Source: an uncultured Planctomycetota bacterium
GTDB taxonomy: Bacteria; Planctomycetota; Planctomycetia; Isosphaerales; Isosphaeraceae
Assembly (NCBI GenBank): GCA_963737655.1
Contig: CAVTTN010000002.1
Location: 4,704,001-4,768,000, forward strand
DNA: 64,000 bases
Reading direction: 5' to 3'
Part shown: piece after piece, positions 31,151-40,161 of the stretch
Layout of the letters: every line of letters begins with the position of its first letter
How positions within the stretch are numbered: the first letter of the stretch is position 1
Translations under genes and position numbers: made by a program
Notes under the pieces: generated by a model
Databases searched by the model: none
What the model was told of the DNA's origin: nothing
The model's input: the letters and a program-made list of their open reading frames with translations, nothing else

Positions 31151-31771
31151 TCAGAACCGCTGGCGACCGGCGAGGGCGTCGGCCAGCATCTCCTTGTTGG
31201 CGAACTCCAGGGCGCCGCCGGAGGCCAGCCCGCGCGCCAGTCGCGTCACGGGAACTCCTGTCTCGGAAAGGGCTTGTGCCACCAGGAGCGCCGTGCCGTC
31301 GCCTTCGAGGTTCGGGTTCGTGGCCAGGATCACCTCGGAGACTCCGCCGGCCCGGACGCGATCGGCCAGCGCCTCGATGGTGAGCTGCTCGGGCCCGAGG
31401 CCTTGCAACGGCGCGAGCCGGCCGAGCAGGACGTGGTAGACCCCGCGGTAGGTTCCGGCCTTTTCCAAAGCGAGGAGGTCGCGAGGCTGTTCGACCACGC
31501 ACACCAGCGACGCCTCCCGCCGCGGATCTCGGCAGACGCTGCACAGCTCGTGGTCGGATTCGGTCAGGTGGAAGCATCGGGTGCAGTGGCGGATGCGGTC
31601 CTTGGCGTCCCGGATCGCGTCGGCCAGCGCCAGCGCCTCTTCCGGCGGGCACTTGAGGAGATGATGCGCGAGCCTCTCCGCGCTCTTGGCGCCGATGCCC
31701 GGGAGCCGGCCCAGGGCGGCGACCAGGCGATCCACGGCCGAGCTGACCCCGCCTCCGTCCTGGATCGCCAC
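31151..31771 (-). CDS. recR: Recombination protein RecR
   Basis: LPGIGAKSAERLA, C4 zinc finger, VCVVE, ILATNPNLEGDGTA. Confidence 0.97.
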   Translation of the reverse strand: MAIQDGGGVSSAVDRLVAALGRLPGIGAKSAERLAHHLLKCPPEEALALADAIRDAKDRIRHCTRCFHLTESDHELCSVCRDPRREASLVCVVEQPRDLLALEKAGTYRGVYHVLLGRLAPLQGLGPEQLTIEALADRVRAGGVSEVILATNPNLEGDGTALLVAQALSETGVPVTRLARGLASGGALEFANKEMLADALAGRQRF

Positions 31772-31774
31772 GGC

Positions 31775-32119
31775 TCAGGCCCCTCCGCCCATCAGGCCCG
31801 AGAGGCCGGGGATCGGCAGGCCGCCGGCCACCCCCTGGATCGATTTGGCCGCCGCTTCCCTCGCCTTGGTCATCGCCTGGTTCACGGCGGCCGTCACGAG
31901 GTCCTCGAGCAATTCGCGGTCGCCGTCGGCCAGGAGCTTCGGATCAATCCTCACCGAGAGCAGCTCCATCCGGCCGTTGGCCTTCGCCGTGACGACCCCT
32001 CCGCCGGCCGAGCCCTCGACCTGAAGCTGGCCGAGCGCCTCGGTGGCCTTCTCGACGCTCTCGCGGATCTTCCCCGCGTTCTTCATCAGGTCGGCCAGGT
32101 TACCAAGGTTGCCGAACAT
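31775..32119 (-). CDS. ybaB: Nucleoid-associated protein YbaB/EbfC
   Basis: VEGSAGGGVV...DRELLEDLVTAAVNQA; sits between dnaX and recR. Confidence 0.95.
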   Translation of the reverse strand: MFGNLGNLADLMKNAGKIRESVEKATEALGQLQVEGSAGGGVVTAKANGRMELLSVRIDPKLLADGDRELLEDLVTAAVNQAMTKAREAAAKSIQGVAGGLPIPGLSGLMGGGA

Positions 32120-32186
32120 GATGAGGGCTCCTCGAAGGGCGGGGACAAGGTTCGGTTGGGTCCGGTTCGATTCGATTCGGTTCGCT

Positions 32187-34016
32187 TCAGGAGACTTCCG
32201 GGTCGTCGCCGAGTTCCAGGTGGATCGGGACGGGGGCCGTTTCAAACAGGTCCATCAGGCCGCGGACCCACGGATCGGATTCGAGCTTGCGGGCGAGCTC
32301 GGCCTTGCTCGACGAGGGGGACGGCGACGATCGGCCCTCCTCCTCGGCGGACGGCTCGAACCGGACGGCCACCGCCCGGCCCAGGATCTCGGCCAGGGCC
32401 GATTCGACGGCCGGGCGCGCCTCCTCGAACCGATTCGCCTCCGCATTGTACTTCGACCCGACCGCCACGACCAGCGTCCCGGAGGGTTCGACGGCCGAGG
32501 GCCGGACCTGGCTCAGGAGGAACCGCCCGGTGCCGATCCGACCGATCATCTCGGCCCAGGCGACCCGGGCGGCGTCCAGGTCCGGGGCCCTCGAAGGCTC
32601 GGCGATCGGCCGAGGGGCGGGCTCGGCCGGCGGAGGGGGCGTCGGGGCCGGAACCGGAGCCAAAGCCGGTGGAGCGGGACGGCTCGGGGCCTTCGACGCC
32701 GTCGAATGGCCATTTCGAGCCGGCTCGGGCGTCGGCGCGACCGGGCGGGGCAAGACCGGGCGAGGCGGAGGGGCCGGTTCGTCAGCGGCTAACTTTTTTT
32801 TTACGGTCGGCGGGCCGTCGCCGGCCATCGCCGAGAGCCGGCCGATCAATTCGGCGACCTCGGCGAGGTCTTCGAGCCGAGCCACGCGGATCAGGGCGAT
32901 TTCGACGATCAATCGCGGATACGAGCTGCCCCGGAGCCGTCCCCGGGCCTCGGCCAGGATCTGCATCGCGGCCAGGATGGTGTCGATCGGCATGCGGTCG
33001 GCGATCGCGCGGAGCCTGGCGGATTGGCCGGGGGCCGCCGCCAGCAGGGGGACGCCGGCGCCCAGGGCCGTGGCCATCACGTCCCGGAGGAAATCGACCG
33101 ACCCGGCCAGGAGGTCCGACGGCTGGACGCCGGTCAGGCTCGCCGCCTCGACCAGGGAGAGCACCCGGGCCGCGTCGCGATCGGCCAGGGCATCCAGGAG
33201 GTCCAGGACGCGCTCATCGGGGGCGATCCCCAGGGCGCGGTGGACGGCCTCGTTGCTCAGCGACTTCCCGCCGTAGGAAAGCATTTGCTCCAGCAAGGAC
33301 TGGGCATCCCGCATCGAGCCCGAGGCCCGCCGGGCGATCGTGGCCAGGGCGTCGGGGTCGGCCTGGACGCCCTCGTTCTGGCAGATCTCGGCCAGGGTCG
33401 CGGCGATCTGGTCGGGGGTGATCCCGGCGAAGTCGTACCTCTGGCACCGCGAGAGGACGGTGATCGGGATCTTGTTCGGCTCGGTCGTGGCGAAGAAGAA
33501 CTTGACGTGCTCGGGAGGCTCCTCCAGCGTCTTCAACAGGGCGTTGAAGGCGCCGGTGGAGAGCATGTGGACCTCGTCGATGTAATAGATCTTGAATCGC
33601 GACCGGCTGGGCCGAAGGCCGGCGTTCTGACGGAGCTCGCGGACGGCCTCGACGCCGTTATTGCTGGCCCCGTCGATCTCGATCACGTCCACGTCCTGGC
33701 CGACGGAGATGGCCCGGCAGATGTCGCAGACGTTGCAGGGCGTCTCGGTCGGCCCGGTCACGCAGTTCAGGCACTTGGCAAAAATCCGGGCGATCGAGGT
33801 CTTGCCGACCCCCCGGGTCCCGCAAAACAGGTACGCATGAGTGACCCGATTGAGGCGGATGGCATTGCGGAGGGCCTGGACGACGTGATCCTGGCCCACG
33901 ACGTCCTCGAACGTCTGAGGGCGATACCGCCGGGCCACGACGGTATACGACGCGCCGTCTCCGGGGGCTTCGATCGTCGCTGGGGTCCGTACCACATCGC
34001 GCTCCGTCGCTTCCAT
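32187..34016 (-). CDS. dnaX: DNA polymerase III subunits gamma/tau
   Basis: ARRYRPQTF, GTRGVGKTS, DEVHMLS, SRCQ, GSMRDA. Confidence 0.97.
   Translation of the reverse strand: MEATERDVVRTPATIEAPGDGASYTVVARRYRPQTFEDVVGQDHVVQALRNAIRLNRVTHAYLFCGTRGVGKTSIARIFAKCLNCVTGPTETPCNVCDICRAISVGQDVDVIEIDGASNNGVEAVRELRQNAGLRPSRSRFKIYYIDEVHMLSTGAFNALLKTLEEPPEHVKFFFATTEPNKIPITVLSRCQRYDFAGITPDQIAATLAEICQNEGVQADPDALATIARRASGSMRDAQSLLEQMLSYGGKSLSNEAVHRALGIAPDERVLDLLDALADRDAARVLSLVEAASLTGVQPSDLLAGSVDFLRDVMATALGAGVPLLAAAPGQSARLRAIADRMPIDTILAAMQILAEARGRLRGSSYPRLIVEIALIRVARLEDLAEVAELIGRLSAMAGDGPPTVKKKLAADEPAPPPRPVLPRPVAPTPEPARNGHSTASKAPSRPAPPALAPVPAPTPPPPAEPAPRPIAEPSRAPDLDAARVAWAEMIGRIGTGRFLLSQVRPSAVEPSGTLVVAVGSKYNAEANRFEEARPAVESALAEILGRAVAVRFEPSAEEEGRSSPSPSSSKAELARKLESDPWVRGLMDLFETAPVPIHLELGDDPEVS
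32782..32804 (-). promoter_or_regulatory. Putative programmed frameshift/transcriptional slippage site in dnaX
   Basis: mRNA GTA AAA AAA AAG TTA GCC GCT GA: an A9 run, with TGA in the -1 frame and TAG in the +1 frame within 12 nt. Confidence 0.8.
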
Positions 34017-34049
34017 CCTGCCTTCCGGGCAGTGCCTCGCTGGGCCTCG

Positions 34050-34147
34050 GAGTGCTGAGTGCTGAGTGCTGAGTGCTGAGACTCTACCTTGTTTTGCGAC
34101 GGTCTGAGGCTTCGGACTCAGCACTCATTCCTCGGCACTCCGCACTT
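34050..34147. repeat. Heptamer tandem repeat (AGTGCTG)4 with inverted degenerate copies forming a hairpin
   Basis: Tandem at 34051-34080; CTCAGCACTC, CGGCACTC and CGCACT downstream. Confidence 0.8.
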
Positions 34148-34166
34148 CTTTCTGGAGAGGGGGCCG

Positions 34167-34279
34167 GGGAGAGCCGGGGAGGTGCTCCCGGGCGCATGAA
34201 GGCGATGCTTATGGCTGCTGCGTTCCCGCCCTGACCAGGTTCGCAAGCCCCCATCGCCCGGGTCCCCCCCGGCTCACCC
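34167..34279 (-). ncRNA. ffs: Signal recognition particle RNA (4.5S)
   Basis: Minus strand GAACCTGGTCAGG-GCG-GGAA-CGC-AGCAGCC (helix 8) inside a long stem; usual position upstream of dnaX-ybaB-recR. Ends approximate. Confidence 0.9.
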
Positions 34280-34402
34280 TGACCCCCGCCCCTTTGCTCG
34301 CTCGCTCGCTCGCCGGCCGGCCGACTGGGCACGGGCCTCCGGGCTCATTTTGGGATTGTCGGACATCGGAGGCCGGCATGCAAGGCCAGATCGCCGGGCG
34401 TG

Positions 34403-35071: not shown

Positions 35072-35269
35072 ATGCTTTCGCTCCTCCCGAACCTTGGCCC
35101 CGGATCGCCGCTCGACGCCGTGCCCTTGTTGCTGGCCTATCTCGACCCGGGCAGCGGCAGCATGGTCCTCCAGGTGTTGATCGCCGGCCTGCTGAGCGGG
35201 ATGTTCTTCGTCCGCTCGTCCTGGGGCCGGATCAACGCCTGGGTGTTCGGGAACCGGGCCCGGCGATGA
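35072..35269 (+). CDS. Small single-TM protein with AYLDPGSGS motif (65 aa)
   Basis: GAGGA RBS; LAYLDPGSGSMVLQVLIAGLLSGMFFV; stop overlaps next ATG (ATGA). Confidence 0.75.
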   Translation: MLSLLPNLGPGSPLDAVPLLLAYLDPGSGSMVLQVLIAGLLSGMFFVRSSWGRINAWVFGNRARR

Positions 35270-36651
35270 GCGAGCGGCCTCGGCCCGGGGCGTCGTTCCG
35301 CGACCCCTCGGGCTTCGTGTTCGTCCGCGGCCCGGACCTGCTCCGCCAGGTCAACCTCTCCTACCGAGACGACTACGACCGGCTGATCGGCTCGGGCCTC
35401 TACCGGTCCCTGGCCGACCTCGGCTGGCTGGTGGACCACGAGGAGACGGACGAGGCCCCCGGGACGGACGAGGCGGCCTATCGCGTCCTCCGGCCCGAGC
35501 GCGTCCCGTTCGTGTCCTATCCCTACGAATGGAGCGTCTCCCAGCTCCGGGACGCCGCCCTGCTGACCCTGGACATCCAGGAACGCGCCCTGGCCTCGGG
35601 CATGACCTTGAAGGATGCCTCGGCGACCAACGTCCAGTTTCTTCGAGGAAAGCCGGTGCTGATTGACACCCTGTCCTTCGCGAGTTACCGCGAAGGGGAG
35701 CCCTGGGCCGCCTACCGCCAGTTTTGCGGCCATTTCCTGGCCCCTCTGGCCTTGATGAGCCGGGTGGACGCCCGCCTCGGCTCGCTCCTGAGGCCCTATC
35801 CCGACGGAATCCCGCTGGACCTCGCCGCGAAGCTCCTCCCCTGGCGAGTTCGGCTCCGACCCGGGCTGTTCCTCCACCTGGCACTCCATGCAAAATTCCA
35901 GGGCTCGGAGGCGAAGGCGGCTTCCGCTCCTCCTCGGAGGGGGTTTGGCCGATCGGCCATGCTCGGGCTGGTCCAGAGCCTGCGATCGGCGATCCTCGGC
36001 CTGCCGACGCCCTCGATTCGGTCGATCTGGTCGAATTATCAGACAGACAACTCCTATTCGGATGCCGCCCGTCAGCTCAAGCACCGGCTCGTGGCCGAAT
36101 TCCTCGATCCGATCGCGCCGGAGACGGTCTGGGACCTCGGCGCGAACGTGGGGGAGTACGCGCGGATCGCCTCGGCGAAGGGGATCTCGACGGTGGCCTT
36201 CGACCGCGACCCGGCCTGCGTCGAGAAGGCGTATCGGGACGCCCGGTCCCGCGACGACCCCGCCTTGCTTCCCCTGGTCATGGACCTGGCCAACCCCAGC
36301 CCCGGGCTGGGCTGGGAGGGACGGGAGCGGGCGTCGTTTCTGGACCGGGGGCCCGCCGACCTGGTGATGGCCCTGGCCCTGGTTCATCACCTGGCCATCG
36401 GCAACAACGTGCCGCTGGCGAACCTCGCCGAGTTCTTCGCGAGGGCGGGCCGGTGGCTGATCGTCGAGTTCGTGCCGAAGACCGATCCCCAGGTCCGCCG
36501 CCTCCTCCGGGCCCGGGACGACATTTTCGGCGACTACCATGTCGAGGGGTTCGAAGCCGCCTTCGCCCCCCGGTTCGAGATCGTGAGGTCCGCCCCCCTG
36601 GAAGACGGGGGGCGCATCCTCTACCTGATGAGGCGCAAGGACAGGCCATGA
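35266..36651 (+). CDS. NoeA-like protein: kinase-like N-domain plus class I SAM methyltransferase
   Basis: SFRDPSG, SYPYEWS, LKDASATNVQF...LIDTLSF; VWDLGANVGEY, ALALVHHL. Confidence 0.85.
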   Translation: MSERPRPGASFRDPSGFVFVRGPDLLRQVNLSYRDDYDRLIGSGLYRSLADLGWLVDHEETDEAPGTDEAAYRVLRPERVPFVSYPYEWSVSQLRDAALLTLDIQERALASGMTLKDASATNVQFLRGKPVLIDTLSFASYREGEPWAAYRQFCGHFLAPLALMSRVDARLGSLLRPYPDGIPLDLAAKLLPWRVRLRPGLFLHLALHAKFQGSEAKAASAPPRRGFGRSAMLGLVQSLRSAILGLPTPSIRSIWSNYQTDNSYSDAARQLKHRLVAEFLDPIAPETVWDLGANVGEYARIASAKGISTVAFDRDPACVEKAYRDARSRDDPALLPLVMDLANPSPGLGWEGRERASFLDRGPADLVMALALVHHLAIGNNVPLANLAEFFARAGRWLIVEFVPKTDPQVRRLLRARDDIFGDYHVEGFEAAFAPRFEIVRSAPLEDGGRILYLMRRKDRP

Positions 36652-38289
36652 CGCTCCTCCGGAAGTTTCGACCCGTCCTCCACCCGTTCCTCCTGGCGGT
36701 CTTCCCGATCCTCTCCTTCTTCGCCCAGAACGCGAGGGAGGTGGGGGCCTACGAGCTGACCGAGCCGATCGAGGTGGCGCTAGGGGCGTCGGCCGTCGCG
36801 TGGGTCGTCTTCTCGATCCTGTTCCGGGACGTCCACCGGGGGGGCCTGGAGGCCACCCTCCTGGTCGTCGGCTTCTGGACGATCGGCCGGGCCCCGGAAG
36901 ACGTCGCCTGCGCGCTGGAATACCTCAGCGAGTTCTGGGTGGTCCAGGATTTCCCGGCGTGGACCAAGACCGTCACGACCCTGGAATCCGCCCTTCTGAT
37001 CGCCGCGTTCGTCGGGCTGGGCTGGAGGCTGAAAGATCCCCGGGCCTGGACGTTGCGGCTGAACGTCTTCGCCGTGATCCTGGTCGCGATGCCGGCCCTG
37101 ACGATCTTCCGGGTCGAGCGCGAGGTGATCGCCACCGACCCGGCCCGCCCGGCCCTGGCGAGGCTGAAGAAGCCGGAGAAGCGGCCGGACATCTATTACA
37201 TCATCCTCGACGGATTCGCCCGGGCCGACGTCCAGAAGGCCCTTTTCGACTACGACCTGGAGCCGTTCCTGGCCCACCTGGAAGACCAGGGGTTCTACGT
37301 GGCCCGCCACGCCACGTCGAACTATTGCCAGACGCCGCTGTCGCTGACCTCCTCGCTCAACGGCGACTACCTCCCCGACCCTCCGACCGAGGAGGCGATG
37401 CAGTTCCCGCCCGATGCGGTCCTGGTCCGCGAGAATGCCGTGGTCAAGACGCTCCGGCCTCTGGGCTACAAGTTCGTCAGCTTCGCCAGCGGGTTCGACC
37501 ACACCGAATTGCCCGGGGCCGACGTCTATCTGTCCCCGTACCCGTATTGCAGCACGTTCCGCCGGGCCCTCCTGCTGGATACCCCGCTCTGGCGGTTCCT
37601 GCCCGACCCGATGCAGCACGACTCCTACACGATGACCCGCACCCGGACGAACTACGTCTTCGAGACCCTACCCAAGATCGCCAAGGACCGCGCGCACCAC
37701 GTTCACCTTCGCGCACATCCTCTCGCCGCATCCCCCGTTCGTCTTCGGCCCGAACGGCGAGGACGTGAGCCCCCGCCACCAGCACTATTTCCTGAACGAC
37801 GGCACGGTTTACATGATCCACTACGGCGACCCGGCGTCGTACGTGAAGGGGTATCACGATCAGGTCGCCTATCTCGTCAAGGGCGTCCGCAAGGCGATCG
37901 ACGGCATCCTCGCCAACTCGCCCGAGCCGCCGATCATCCTCCTCCAGTCCGACCACGGCTCGGGCCTGGGCCTGTTCCCGTTCAGCCTCGAACGGACCGA
38001 CCTCCCCGAGAGGATGAGCATCCTCAGCGCCTATTACTTCCCCGGAGGGAAGCGTCAGGGCCTCCACGACGAGATCACCCCGGTGAATTCGTTCCGGGTC
38101 CTGTTCAACAACTACTTCGAGGCCAACCTGCCGACCCTGCCCGATGAGAGCTATTTCTCGTCGTGGGTCGAGCCCCAGAAGTTCTCCCGGGTCACGGACA
38201 AGGTAAAGGGCCAGACCTACCACGGGCCGCCCCCTCCGCCTTCGACCAACCTGCCCGACGGCCGGAACCCCTTCGCGGGAAGCTTCTGA
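36648..38289 (+). CDS. Membrane-anchored sulfatase/alkaline-phosphatase superfamily protein, frameshift near 37695
   Basis: About 5 N-terminal TM helices; PDIYYIILDGFAR, SNYCQTPLS, FAHILSPHPPF, LQSDHG. Confidence 0.85.
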
Positions 38290-38318: not shown

Positions 38319-39818
38319 TCAGCCGAACTTCTTGACGACCGCCTCGCCCACGGCCTCGCCCACGGAGAGCCCGGCCGTGTTGTCCGACGGGTAATGGATG
38401 CCCCCGTAGATCCGGCTGATCCCGGCTTCCTGCGCGGCCTGGTCGAAGCTGGTGAAGTGCCGGGGCTGGACCCCGACGGTCGGGTCTCCGGGGTCCGTGA
38501 AGGCGAAATTCGGGCCGAAGACCGACGTCAACACCGCCGACGCCGCCGCGCTGAACGTGCTGTGACCCGAGATGTACGACGGGAAATTCGGGGTCGTCAG
38601 CAGGGGCGTCCAGCTCGGGTCGGAGGCCACTCCGGGCGTCCCGTTGGCGGCGGCCTGGCGGATCTCGGTCACGGGCCGGACCGTGTCGTCGGTCCACTTG
38701 CACGCCCAGCAGACGATCCCCGCGTCCGCCTCCGCCAGGTCGAGCAGGGCGAAGGTCCGGGCGTCCCGGGCGAGGGCCTGGGGCTTGCTCAGCGCGGCGA
38801 TCTCGGCGATCTGGTTCCACTGGCCGATGGGCGTGAAGGTGTCCACGCCGTCGGACCAGAACTGGGCGATCGCCGTCTGGTCGGCCGTCCTCGTGGTGCT
38901 ATTCTTCGATCCCAGCGACTCGACTTCCTGCAAATCGGCCACGAATTGCGGCGAGTTGAACGCCGGGGGCGGGGGCGGCTGGAACGCCGAGGCCGAGCTG
39001 ATGGCGAACGGCTGGACCTGGCCCCATCCCGGCAACAGGCCCGGGAGGTATTTGGGAGGAGTCGGCACCCAGTGGCCCGGCCCGCCGGGCGTCGGGGCCG
39101 CGACCGAGGCGGCCGAGGCCGAGCCGTCGTTGGCCCTCTGGGCCAGGATCGCCGAGCCGACCGCTTGCCCGAGGGCCTCGCCCCGGGCTCGGGCCCGCCG
39201 GTTGGGGACCGTGGCCTCGGCCTCATCGACCATCGCCGAGAACGACGACGCCCCTCCCGGCAAGACGGCCGCCAGGACGGTCCTCGCCGCCTCGGCCGCC
39301 GCGACGGTCGCCGACGCCCCCCGGTCCTTCGGCATGGTCACGAGGTATCCGGCCTCGCCCCGGGTCGCGGCCACCGCGTCGTGGACGGCCGCCTCGGCCA
39401 TCGCCAGGTCTCGCGAGGCGATCGGCGGGCTGGTCCCGGCCGCGCGGATCTGGGCAATTGCCACGTCGTTCGAATCAATCACCGCATCCCCGCGAGACAC
39501 CAGCACTTGCACCGACGTACCCGAGGTCCGATCGACCACCTCGAACGCCGACGGACCCCACGGCAACGCCGTCCGAAACCCGAACGCCCCCGAGCTTCCC
39601 ACGCGAGCCGTCGCCACCGGCCGCGAATGCCCCGAGCGTTCCAGGACGACCCTCTCCCCGGCGTTGGCCGTCCCGATGATCGCGACCTTCCGCGTGAGGA
39701 CCATCCCGTTGGCGTCCGGGTCCGATCTCTGGTCGATCGTCGCCGAGAGGCCCGAGAGCAAGGCGCGTTGTTCCAGGGGCTCCGGGGCAAACCGACGAGG
39801 CCGGGTCTTGGGGCGCAT
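38319..39818 (-). CDS. Exported vanadium-dependent haloperoxidase/PAP2-family protein
   Basis: LEQRALLS export motif; CKW...RP, PSYISGHS, SRIYGGIHY. Confidence 0.85.
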   Translation of the reverse strand: MRPKTRPRRFAPEPLEQRALLSGLSATIDQRSDPDANGMVLTRKVAIIGTANAGERVVLERSGHSRPVATARVGSSGAFGFRTALPWGPSAFEVVDRTSGTSVQVLVSRGDAVIDSNDVAIAQIRAAGTSPPIASRDLAMAEAAVHDAVAATRGEAGYLVTMPKDRGASATVAAAEAARTVLAAVLPGGASSFSAMVDEAEATVPNRRARARGEALGQAVGSAILAQRANDGSASAASVAAPTPGGPGHWVPTPPKYLPGLLPGWGQVQPFAISSASAFQPPPPPAFNSPQFVADLQEVESLGSKNSTTRTADQTAIAQFWSDGVDTFTPIGQWNQIAEIAALSKPQALARDARTFALLDLAEADAGIVCWACKWTDDTVRPVTEIRQAAANGTPGVASDPSWTPLLTTPNFPSYISGHSTFSAAASAVLTSVFGPNFAFTDPGDPTVGVQPRHFTSFDQAAQEAGISRIYGGIHYPSDNTAGLSVGEAVGEAVVKKFG

Positions 39819-40161
39819 GGGACGGCTTCTCCTTCGAACCCGTGGGGCGAGGCTGGATTCTCTCACTCGATCGCAGATAGGGCGGAGGGGACCGATCCAG
39901 GATACCCCGTCCGGGCCGGAGCGCTCCAGAGAAGCCCGAGGGATTCGGCGATCTTTTCCGGTCAGTTGAGAGAAAGCGACACGCCGGGGCGGATGGTCGC
40001 GAAATCGCCGGGCATCACGGGCCGCGATCGACGGCGATCGGGGGGCCTCGACCCGTCCAATTGGGGTTGATCGGCCGATTGGGGGGCGTTTATAACGTTC
40101 CGATCCCTCCCGGCCGAAACGGATTCCGGCGAGACCCTCGCTCCCAAGGACGTTTCCGACG

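Follow-up and report, generated by a model that had tools for sequence, protein, structure and literature searches.

A YxDP membrane micro-protein shared by noeA/noeB-type cassettes and TagF-like gene clusters: a possible peptide shuttle for methyl-phosphate

Introduction

A computational study from 2022 described Lani_1194 as a kinase-methyltransferase fusion family with two conserved neighbours and left its function open (PMC9758233). The Legionella unit comprises Lani_1193/1194/1195, of which Lani_1193 measures about 65 residues by the ranges in the supplement, while Lani_1195/NoeB is assigned an EptA/YejM-like fold; the two neighbours were present in 65% and 38% of 816 neighbourhoods, and the kinase-site residues given for the family are Arg for K72 of protein kinase A and Asp/Asn/Asp for its D166/N171/D184 (PMC9758233). 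The corresponding operon of Sinorhizobium meliloti affects nodulation, and a modification of Nod factors has been proposed (PMC9048898, PMC9758233). Here we analyse a trio of this kind in a 64-kb stretch of DNA from an uncultured Planctomycetota bacterium (contig CAVTTN010000002.1; hereafter the window), consisting of a micro-protein with a Tyr-x-Asp-Pro (YxDP) motif, a putative kinase-methyltransferase (gene 2) and a membrane protein of the alkaline-phosphatase superfamily (gene 3). For the small protein, the part of PMC9758233 cited here gives no chemistry, motif or carrier role, and draws no link to TagF-like or YidC proteins.

Other described systems share single elements with this trio. 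WbdD of Escherichia coli O9a joins a kinase to a methyltransferase; its His132 and His133 are needed for phosphate methylation and together with Arg203 mark a phosphate-specific enzyme, although NodS or RebM can also carry two His at this site (PMC3482155). DltX is a membrane microprotein with a Tyr that shuttles acyl groups (PMC12148441). In the phosphonyl tailoring pathway, composed of Ppm, Ppd, aminoethylphosphonate (AEP) transaminase and PntC, AEP is activated with cytidine monophosphate (CMP), and the later tailoring steps are called enigmatic (PMC6697681).

A micro-protein with more than one kind of partner

By sequence, the window trio is a copy of the S. meliloti micro-ORF/noeA/noeB unit, a system already described with its function unsolved. 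Gene 2, which has at least 8000 homologs, matched S. meliloti NoeA over its full length (37% identity over 468 columns, E 6e-88). On pSymA the gene order is nodL, a 71-residue hypothetical open reading frame (ORF), noeA and noeB; the 71-residue ORF encodes the same micro-protein (17 of 33 residues identical around the motif), and NoeB is only distantly similar to gene 3 (pairwise E 0.057 and 0.001 for the two halves of gene 3), with shared motifs and gene position. The Lani_1193-1195 unit shows the same order and the same three families, the link to Lani_1194 running via NoeA as given in PMC9758233 and not through a direct alignment; the S. meliloti proteins are in none of the alignments used below. 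The original prediction, which had presented the trio as an undescribed system, has to be corrected in this respect. What is new is the link of the micro-protein to phosphorus-decoration clusters with TagF-like and YidC proteins.

The window micro-protein comprises a leader, the stretch Tyr-Leu-Asp-Pro-Gly-Ser-Gly-Ser, one membrane helix with a Gln, and a basic tail. Of the 83 loci that could be evaluated, 74 have a YxDP ORF ahead of gene 2 and three more have one at another position (77/83), well above what chance would give. The pairing spans many phyla and an archaeon as well as S. meliloti, so the micro-ORF is indeed conserved beside the pair, as had been supposed. A signal-peptide-like leader ends directly before the motif tyrosine (Tyr1) in 50 of the 77 peptides, and five others start with Met-Tyr, which would place Tyr1 at the outer N-terminus; the remaining 22 show neither arrangement. 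Gln12 occurs in all 77 and Ser8 in 75, whereas position 6 is Thr or Ser in 72 and A, V or M in five. In distant peptides found by profile, Tyr, Asp and Pro are kept and the GTGS stretch is lost. A Ser of DPGSGS, earlier named as a possible acceptor, can therefore be set aside as an invariant acceptor, since position 6 varies and GTGS disappears while Tyr-x-Asp-Pro stays.

Scanning for Y.DP followed by a membrane helix gave one hit in the window (this peptide) and none in 122 kb of control DNA. In metagenomes, the motif scan returned 119 loci, nearly all with true membrane peptides, 73 of which show gene 2 and four a TagF-like gene; among the 31 loci with at least 1.5 kb on each side, 23 carry gene 2, two a TagF-like gene and six neither. 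Pfam and NCBIfam contained no family for the micro-protein. A search for longer proteins with the peptide alignment retrieved eight short proteins and missed the TagF fusions that were later found in genomes.

It was at loci devoid of gene 2 that a family resembling cytidine diphosphate (CDP)-glycerol transferases (PF04464, TagF-like) was revealed beside the peptide. One run in genome G130 holds a gene-3 homolog, the peptide, a cytidylyltransferase-phosphoenolpyruvate (PEP) mutase, a thiamine pyrophosphate (TPP) enzyme, an iron alcohol dehydrogenase, a TagF-like gene and a second sulfatase-like gene. In G259 and G348 a divergent YSDP peptide goes together with genes for a PEP mutase, a TPP enzyme, a nucleotidyltransferase, an aminotransferase and a TagF-like protein, with two sulfatase-like genes coming next in G259, and in G519 a YVDP peptide stands directly after a YidC-TagF fusion. 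The counts that follow were not built from these loci. Within the window's phylum, 20 of 201 genomes have the peptide and 19 full-length gene 2, with 18 shared and four further partial or distant gene 2 hits; the TagF-like gene is present in three of the 201, including both peptide genomes that lack gene 2. Of the two peptide copies that G130 and G739 each have, one accompanies gene 2 and the other a TagF-like cluster. In another phylum the TagF-like gene was found in one of 351 genomes, where the peptide heads an operon of pyruvate phosphate dikinase (PPDK)-like, glutamine amidotransferase, nucleotidyltransferase and TagF-like genes, accompanied by a divergent homolog of gene 3, and where another peptide copy is found next to gene 2. 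We take this enzyme set to resemble the phosphoramidate enzymes of Campylobacter.

The TagF-like gene is more frequent in the order to which G519 belongs (12 of 271 genomes), and a YxDP-plus-helix segment is located at 10 of the 12 TagF-like loci (9/11 independent loci without the query; one miss ends at a contig edge), compared with no hits in controls of 122 kb and 14 kb; three further hits were circular and are excluded from these counts. At loci L310 and L311 the peptide forms the N-terminal part of a fusion with a TagF-like transferase (about 410 residues), and the position of the peptide ahead of this predicted soluble domain fits an N-out/C-in topology. Thr replaces the membrane Gln in both fusions, for which reason Gln12 was rejected as a universal residue. 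Among the 120 top homologs of the G519 TagF-like domain, 119 are YidC fusions, all of them close relatives and thus not independent. For YidC-TagF-like fusions, and likewise for the peptide motif or a carrier role, no published account was found in the open-access literature, subscription papers and bioRxiv supplements lying outside the scope of the search.

On these genomic associations, the micro-protein is not tied to NoeA and is likely a shared hub of several phosphorus-decoration pathways. TagF-like/peptide/transferase sets sit in clusters of the phosphonyl tailoring type, whereas phosphonate genes are absent from the module in the window; neither YidC nor a sulfatase or alkaline phosphatase is named in the abstract of PMC6697681. 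The loci with TagF-like genes lend independent genomic support to the earlier proposal that the micro-protein may act as a carrier.

A few side observations concern the peptide and its surroundings. Four low-G+C metagenome loci (L118, L133, L152, L167) show the peptide and no loader within the sequenced DNA, with glycosyltransferases and a sulfatase-like gene next to it in L133. In L165 and L206 the peptide is extended by a further membrane domain (in L165 with a weak DUF4118 match). At locus L297 (L297:8729-17230) the peptide stands first in an operon whose other genes are PPDK-like, glutamine amidotransferase, nucleotidyltransferase, TagF-like and formyltransferase genes, a set that we take to resemble phosphoramidate biosynthesis. 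Fusions of YidC (PF02096) with a TagF-like domain (PF04464) are widespread (L284:6498-8818, proteins P0135-P0254), and a YxDP micro-ORF comes next in most of the loci checked. A role in phages was discarded, as only one of three viral hits was a real peptide; L236, an IMG/VR contig on which both gene 2 and the peptide are encoded, is possibly of host origin.

Properties of gene 2 and gene 3

The motifs LKDASATN, LIDTLS and DLGANVG are present in the translation of gene 2, and R27, D117, N122 and D134 are invariant in all 74 aligned homologs (alignment A2, from which four homologs with an internal stop had been removed). These invariant residues, together with PMC9758233, suggest that the N-domain is kinase-like. 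In the C-terminal methyltransferase domain (structure model of gene 2 with a pLDDT of 91), WbdD was the best profile match, albeit a weak one (E 0.005), as well as the top Foldseek match, while a wider fold search put it level with many methyltransferases (Z 16.5, rank 11). His374 and His375, invariant in 74/74, align to His132 and His133 of WbdD; R417, also invariant, is no more than a candidate counterpart of Arg203, which falls outside the aligned stretch. Since the His-His pair is both invariant and aligned with residues that WbdD requires for this reaction, we infer with some support that gene 2 methylates a phosphate. The motifs and the methyltransferase half of the fusion announced by the original prediction were thus recovered, and its idea of a methyl-phosphate group gains support; the kinase fold was not shown by the fold searches. 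The database labels PrmA and LTA (lipoteichoic acid) synthase attached to proteins of the trio are automatic names and were rejected as functions.

The resemblance to WbdD raises the question of whether gene 2 modifies a cytoplasmic glycan or a small signal, such as a Nod-factor-like acceptor, before export, with gene 3 as a hydrolase or editing enzyme and the peptide as a membrane tether. Among solved proteins WbdD is the nearest to gene 2, profile searches with gene 3 match soluble sulfatases first, and the nodulation effect of the S. meliloti operon with the proposed Nod-factor modification (PMC9048898, PMC9758233) points the same way. Nevertheless, gene 2 differs from WbdD by its reverse domain order and the lack of a coiled coil, and it is accompanied by the peptide and an outward-facing transferase instead of conserved O-antigen ABC neighbours. 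Neither a glycosyltransferase nor an ABC exporter is a conserved neighbour of the trio, the window copy lies between housekeeping genes, gene 3 has a Thr in place of a sulfatase motif, and such a pathway gives no account of why this peptide and transferase recur next to TagF-like phosphonate clusters. We consider a WbdD-like pathway quite improbable.

Homologs of gene 3 are present in 53 of 86 loci, many of the others having short flanks or a second sulfatase-like family. Formylglycine sulfatases are characterised by the motif Cys/Ser-x-Pro-x-Arg. In the gene 3 family this motif is replaced by the consensus NYxxTxxSL, with Thr as the candidate nucleophile in 49 of 51 aligned members and Ser in two, a metal-ligand Asp in 50/51, and two His and an Asp in 51/51; hence an assignment as sulfatase was dismissed. 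Pfam and NCBIfam returned no family for either half of the window gene. The model of an intact relative (G017; pLDDT 92) has five N-terminal helices, and in Foldseek it matched MCR-1, EptA, PbgA and EptC first and sulfatases thereafter, the match being full-length with the membrane part included. Judged from such models of intact relatives, the family has an EptA-like fold with a candidate Thr nucleophile and metal ligands. The expected LtaS/EptA-like layout was accordingly found, the window motifs being split over two frames; the five transmembrane helices anticipated for gene 3 appear in the model of the relative, whereas simple hydropathy of the window protein calls three strong ones. EptA, MCR-1, LtaS and OpgB share with gene 3 the N-terminal membrane domain, alkaline-phosphatase fold, Thr nucleophile and metal ligands, yet identity is about 12%; the known enzymes take their groups from phospholipids, and the gene 3 family travels with the peptide and a cytoplasmic loader. 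We regard a transfer of methyl-phosphate outside the cell as probable. Loci L035, L037 and L066 have three to four tandem gene 3 paralogs per single peptide and gene 2, which suggests several acceptors.

This relationship leads to the main rival of a peptide shuttle, a lipid carrier. Gene 2 would make a methyl-phosphate lipid, on diacylglycerol or undecaprenol, gene 3 would use it in the way that EptA uses phosphatidylethanolamine, and the peptide would only link the loader to the transferase, as an adaptor or as a subunit that assists flipping. To our knowledge, all characterised EptA/LtaS-type enzymes use lipid donors, and it is the full-length MCR-1/EptA architecture, membrane part included, that the gene 3 relatives match. 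The peptide-TagF fusions agree with a membrane anchor, and no protein tail needs moving. On the other hand, an anchor would have no use for a leader whose cleavage leaves a conserved Tyr-x-Asp-Pro exposed outside, or for a loader that carries its own dedicated protein insertase, and the motif is kept across unrelated loaders. We therefore regard a lipid donor as unlikely, but as the most serious competitor.

A possible peptide shuttle

The reading that we prefer, with a probability of roughly 0.4, is a peptide shuttle in which gene 2 would load methyl-phosphate onto the peptide Tyr and gene 3 would transfer it to a surface polymer; a covalent carrier role of the peptide, taken by itself, is conceivable yet short of probable. 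In the cytoplasm, gene 2 would phosphorylate, by its presumed kinase activity, and then methylate the conserved Tyr of the peptide, whose short charged N-terminal tail would subsequently cross the membrane, the crossing or flipping presumably being assisted by YidC/Sec. The gene 3 enzyme would then move the group via its Thr to an acceptor outside, presumably a surface glycan. A leader, tail, helix and basic tail are the typical layout of YidC substrates, which may provide a route across the membrane for a tail that has been loaded on the cytoplasmic side. The peptide is placed between loader and transferase because peptide and outward-facing transferase are constant, whereas the cytoplasmic enzyme set, which would make or activate a phosphorus-containing group, is variable.

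DltX and the C-terminal Tyr motif of PatA offer the nearest parallel, in which a membrane microprotein acts between a loader and a transferase on the outside and bears a conserved Tyr that is extracellular (PMC12148441). In contrast to DltX, the YxDP motif is N-terminal instead of a C-terminal FxYxxF, the partners are a kinase/methyltransferase or TagF-like protein and an alkaline-phosphatase-fold enzyme instead of MBOAT/SGNH proteins, and the loader is soluble here, so that the tail itself would have to cross.

Several observations weigh against such a shuttle. Tyr1 points outward after insertion, on the other side of the membrane from the gene 2 protein. Gene-2 loci show neither YidC nor a transporter as a conserved neighbour, which leaves the crossing step there without a dedicated gene. 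Peptide-TagF fusions are no single-use exported carriers unless the tail flips reversibly. The window peptide is one of the 22 lacking both leader arrangements and has no hydrophobic signal peptide. Tyr1 was retained in all peptide variants seen, but Tyr, Asp/Gly and Pro belonged to the search pattern, and the invariance of Tyr, Asp and Pro is thus partly built in. As for the kinase, none was among the listed fold-search matches of gene 2, which the methyltransferase domain filled, and phmmer with residues 1-245 gave no matches to solved proteins. Neither loader was seen at the six well-flanked metagenome loci mentioned above, the assembly of G212 (86% complete, 700 contigs) yielded gene 2 but no peptide, and in G062 and G118, which are kin and count as one family, the peptide is on another contig than the TagF-like gene. 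The lipid donors of the characterised EptA/LtaS-type enzymes, and the fact that a lipid carrier with a peptide adaptor accounts for most of the same data, also belong on this side. A complex prediction for gene 2, gene 3 and the peptide from G017 scored 0.02, which gives no verdict and is not used as evidence.

It is tempting, but rather doubtful, to extend the peptide shuttle to all YxDP micro-proteins as general covalent carriers of phosphoester groups. Interchangeable loaders would charge the N-terminal Tyr, NoeA-type kinase-methyltransferases with methyl-phosphate and TagF-like CDP-transferases with phosphonates and phosphoramidate, a YidC-type insertase would carry the tail, and EptA-like enzymes would unload it on surface glycans. 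If the peptide is a shared carrier, a single small genetic system would make two questions testable in a laboratory strain, namely the role of NoeA/NoeB, which belong to a host-range operon of S. meliloti with a chemistry unsettled since 1995, and the route of cytoplasmic CMP-activated phosphonates to surface polymers. The shuttle principle of DltX would be extended from acyl to phosphoryl groups, and YidC-TagF fusions would gain a job. Export would then run over a protein tail where a lipid carrier is otherwise used, and both the noeA/noeB chemistry and the final steps that are still lacking in phosphonate surface tailoring would be accounted for.

Organisation of the locus in the window

The three genes are listed in Table 1. 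ATGA overlaps are seen at both junctions, ORF1/ORF2 and ORF2/gene 3, as previously read, together with the ILDG, QT, HxxxPH and SDHG motifs of gene 3; a single intact frame for gene 3, in contrast, could not be upheld.

Table 1. Features of the trio in the window (positions in the window; all on the strand shown).
Feature	Position	Strand	Remarks
Micro-protein ORF1	35072..35269	+	65 aa, YxDP membrane micro-protein; Tyr codon at 35138
Gene 2 (ORF2)	35266..36651	+	NoeA / Lani_1194-family protein, 461 aa, no membrane segment
Gene 2, kinase-like N-domain	35287..36000	+	Invariant Arg27, Asp117, Asn122, Asp134; kinase assignment from PMC9758233
Gene 2, class I S-adenosylmethionine (SAM) methyltransferase domain	36016..36645	+	His374-His375 (36385-36390) align with WbdD His132-His133
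Gene 3, 5' part	36648..37695	+	Membrane helices, metal ligand Asp188, candidate nucleophile Thr229 (37332)
Frame change within gene 3	37692..37699	+	Likely assembly error
Gene 3, 3' part	37696..38289	+	HILSPH and QSDHG metal-binding motifs, alkaline-phosphatase superfamily

The membrane region, ILDG and NYCQT are all encoded in the first frame of gene 3, in which similarity ends at about codon 350, and the two downstream motifs lie in a separate frame that runs to the end of the gene. Both halves are within a single ORF in 54 related ORFs. They are 40-45% and 56% identical to intact relatives, and all catalytic motifs are retained across them. A control with 20 contigs of a same-genus genome (122 kb, a small part of it) matched 24 ORFs, seven of which change frame in the window's assembly. 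At least four of the seven do so at one clean point, and some of the others may be shadow frames. This assembly consists of three contigs, is 87.7% complete and has an intact rpoB. Because control ORFs shift as well and relatives have both halves in one ORF, the frame change at about 37695 is likely an assembly error. Alternatively, the module might be decaying in this organism, with gene 3 as a true pseudogene and the cassette inactive, which would leave the function of the family elsewhere unaffected. The frame change itself and the patchy presence of the module among relatives (6 of 41) would fit decay, but the complete set of catalytic motifs, the identity of both halves to intact relatives and the seven shifted control ORFs make it a slight prospect, less probable than any other reading considered here.

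Gene 3 is also broken, at other positions, at loci L003 and L017. In the window's genome (G000) the frameshift rate is high, and split genes there are possible assembly errors; a weak gene-3-like match (E 0.002) is located elsewhere in it (G000:C2:6505113-6505925). The G+C content of the trio region equals that of the window, and the flanks, as read from translations, consist of housekeeping genes and contain no glycan cluster. Upstream, dnaX-ybaB-recR-like genes were recognised by translation (31151-34330, minus strand), and a convergent ORF downstream (38319-39866, minus strand) reads like a secreted protein of what we take, from its motifs, to be the PAP2/vanadium-haloperoxidase family. Judging by gene order, the region around 34200-34300 may hold a signal recognition particle (SRP) RNA gene.

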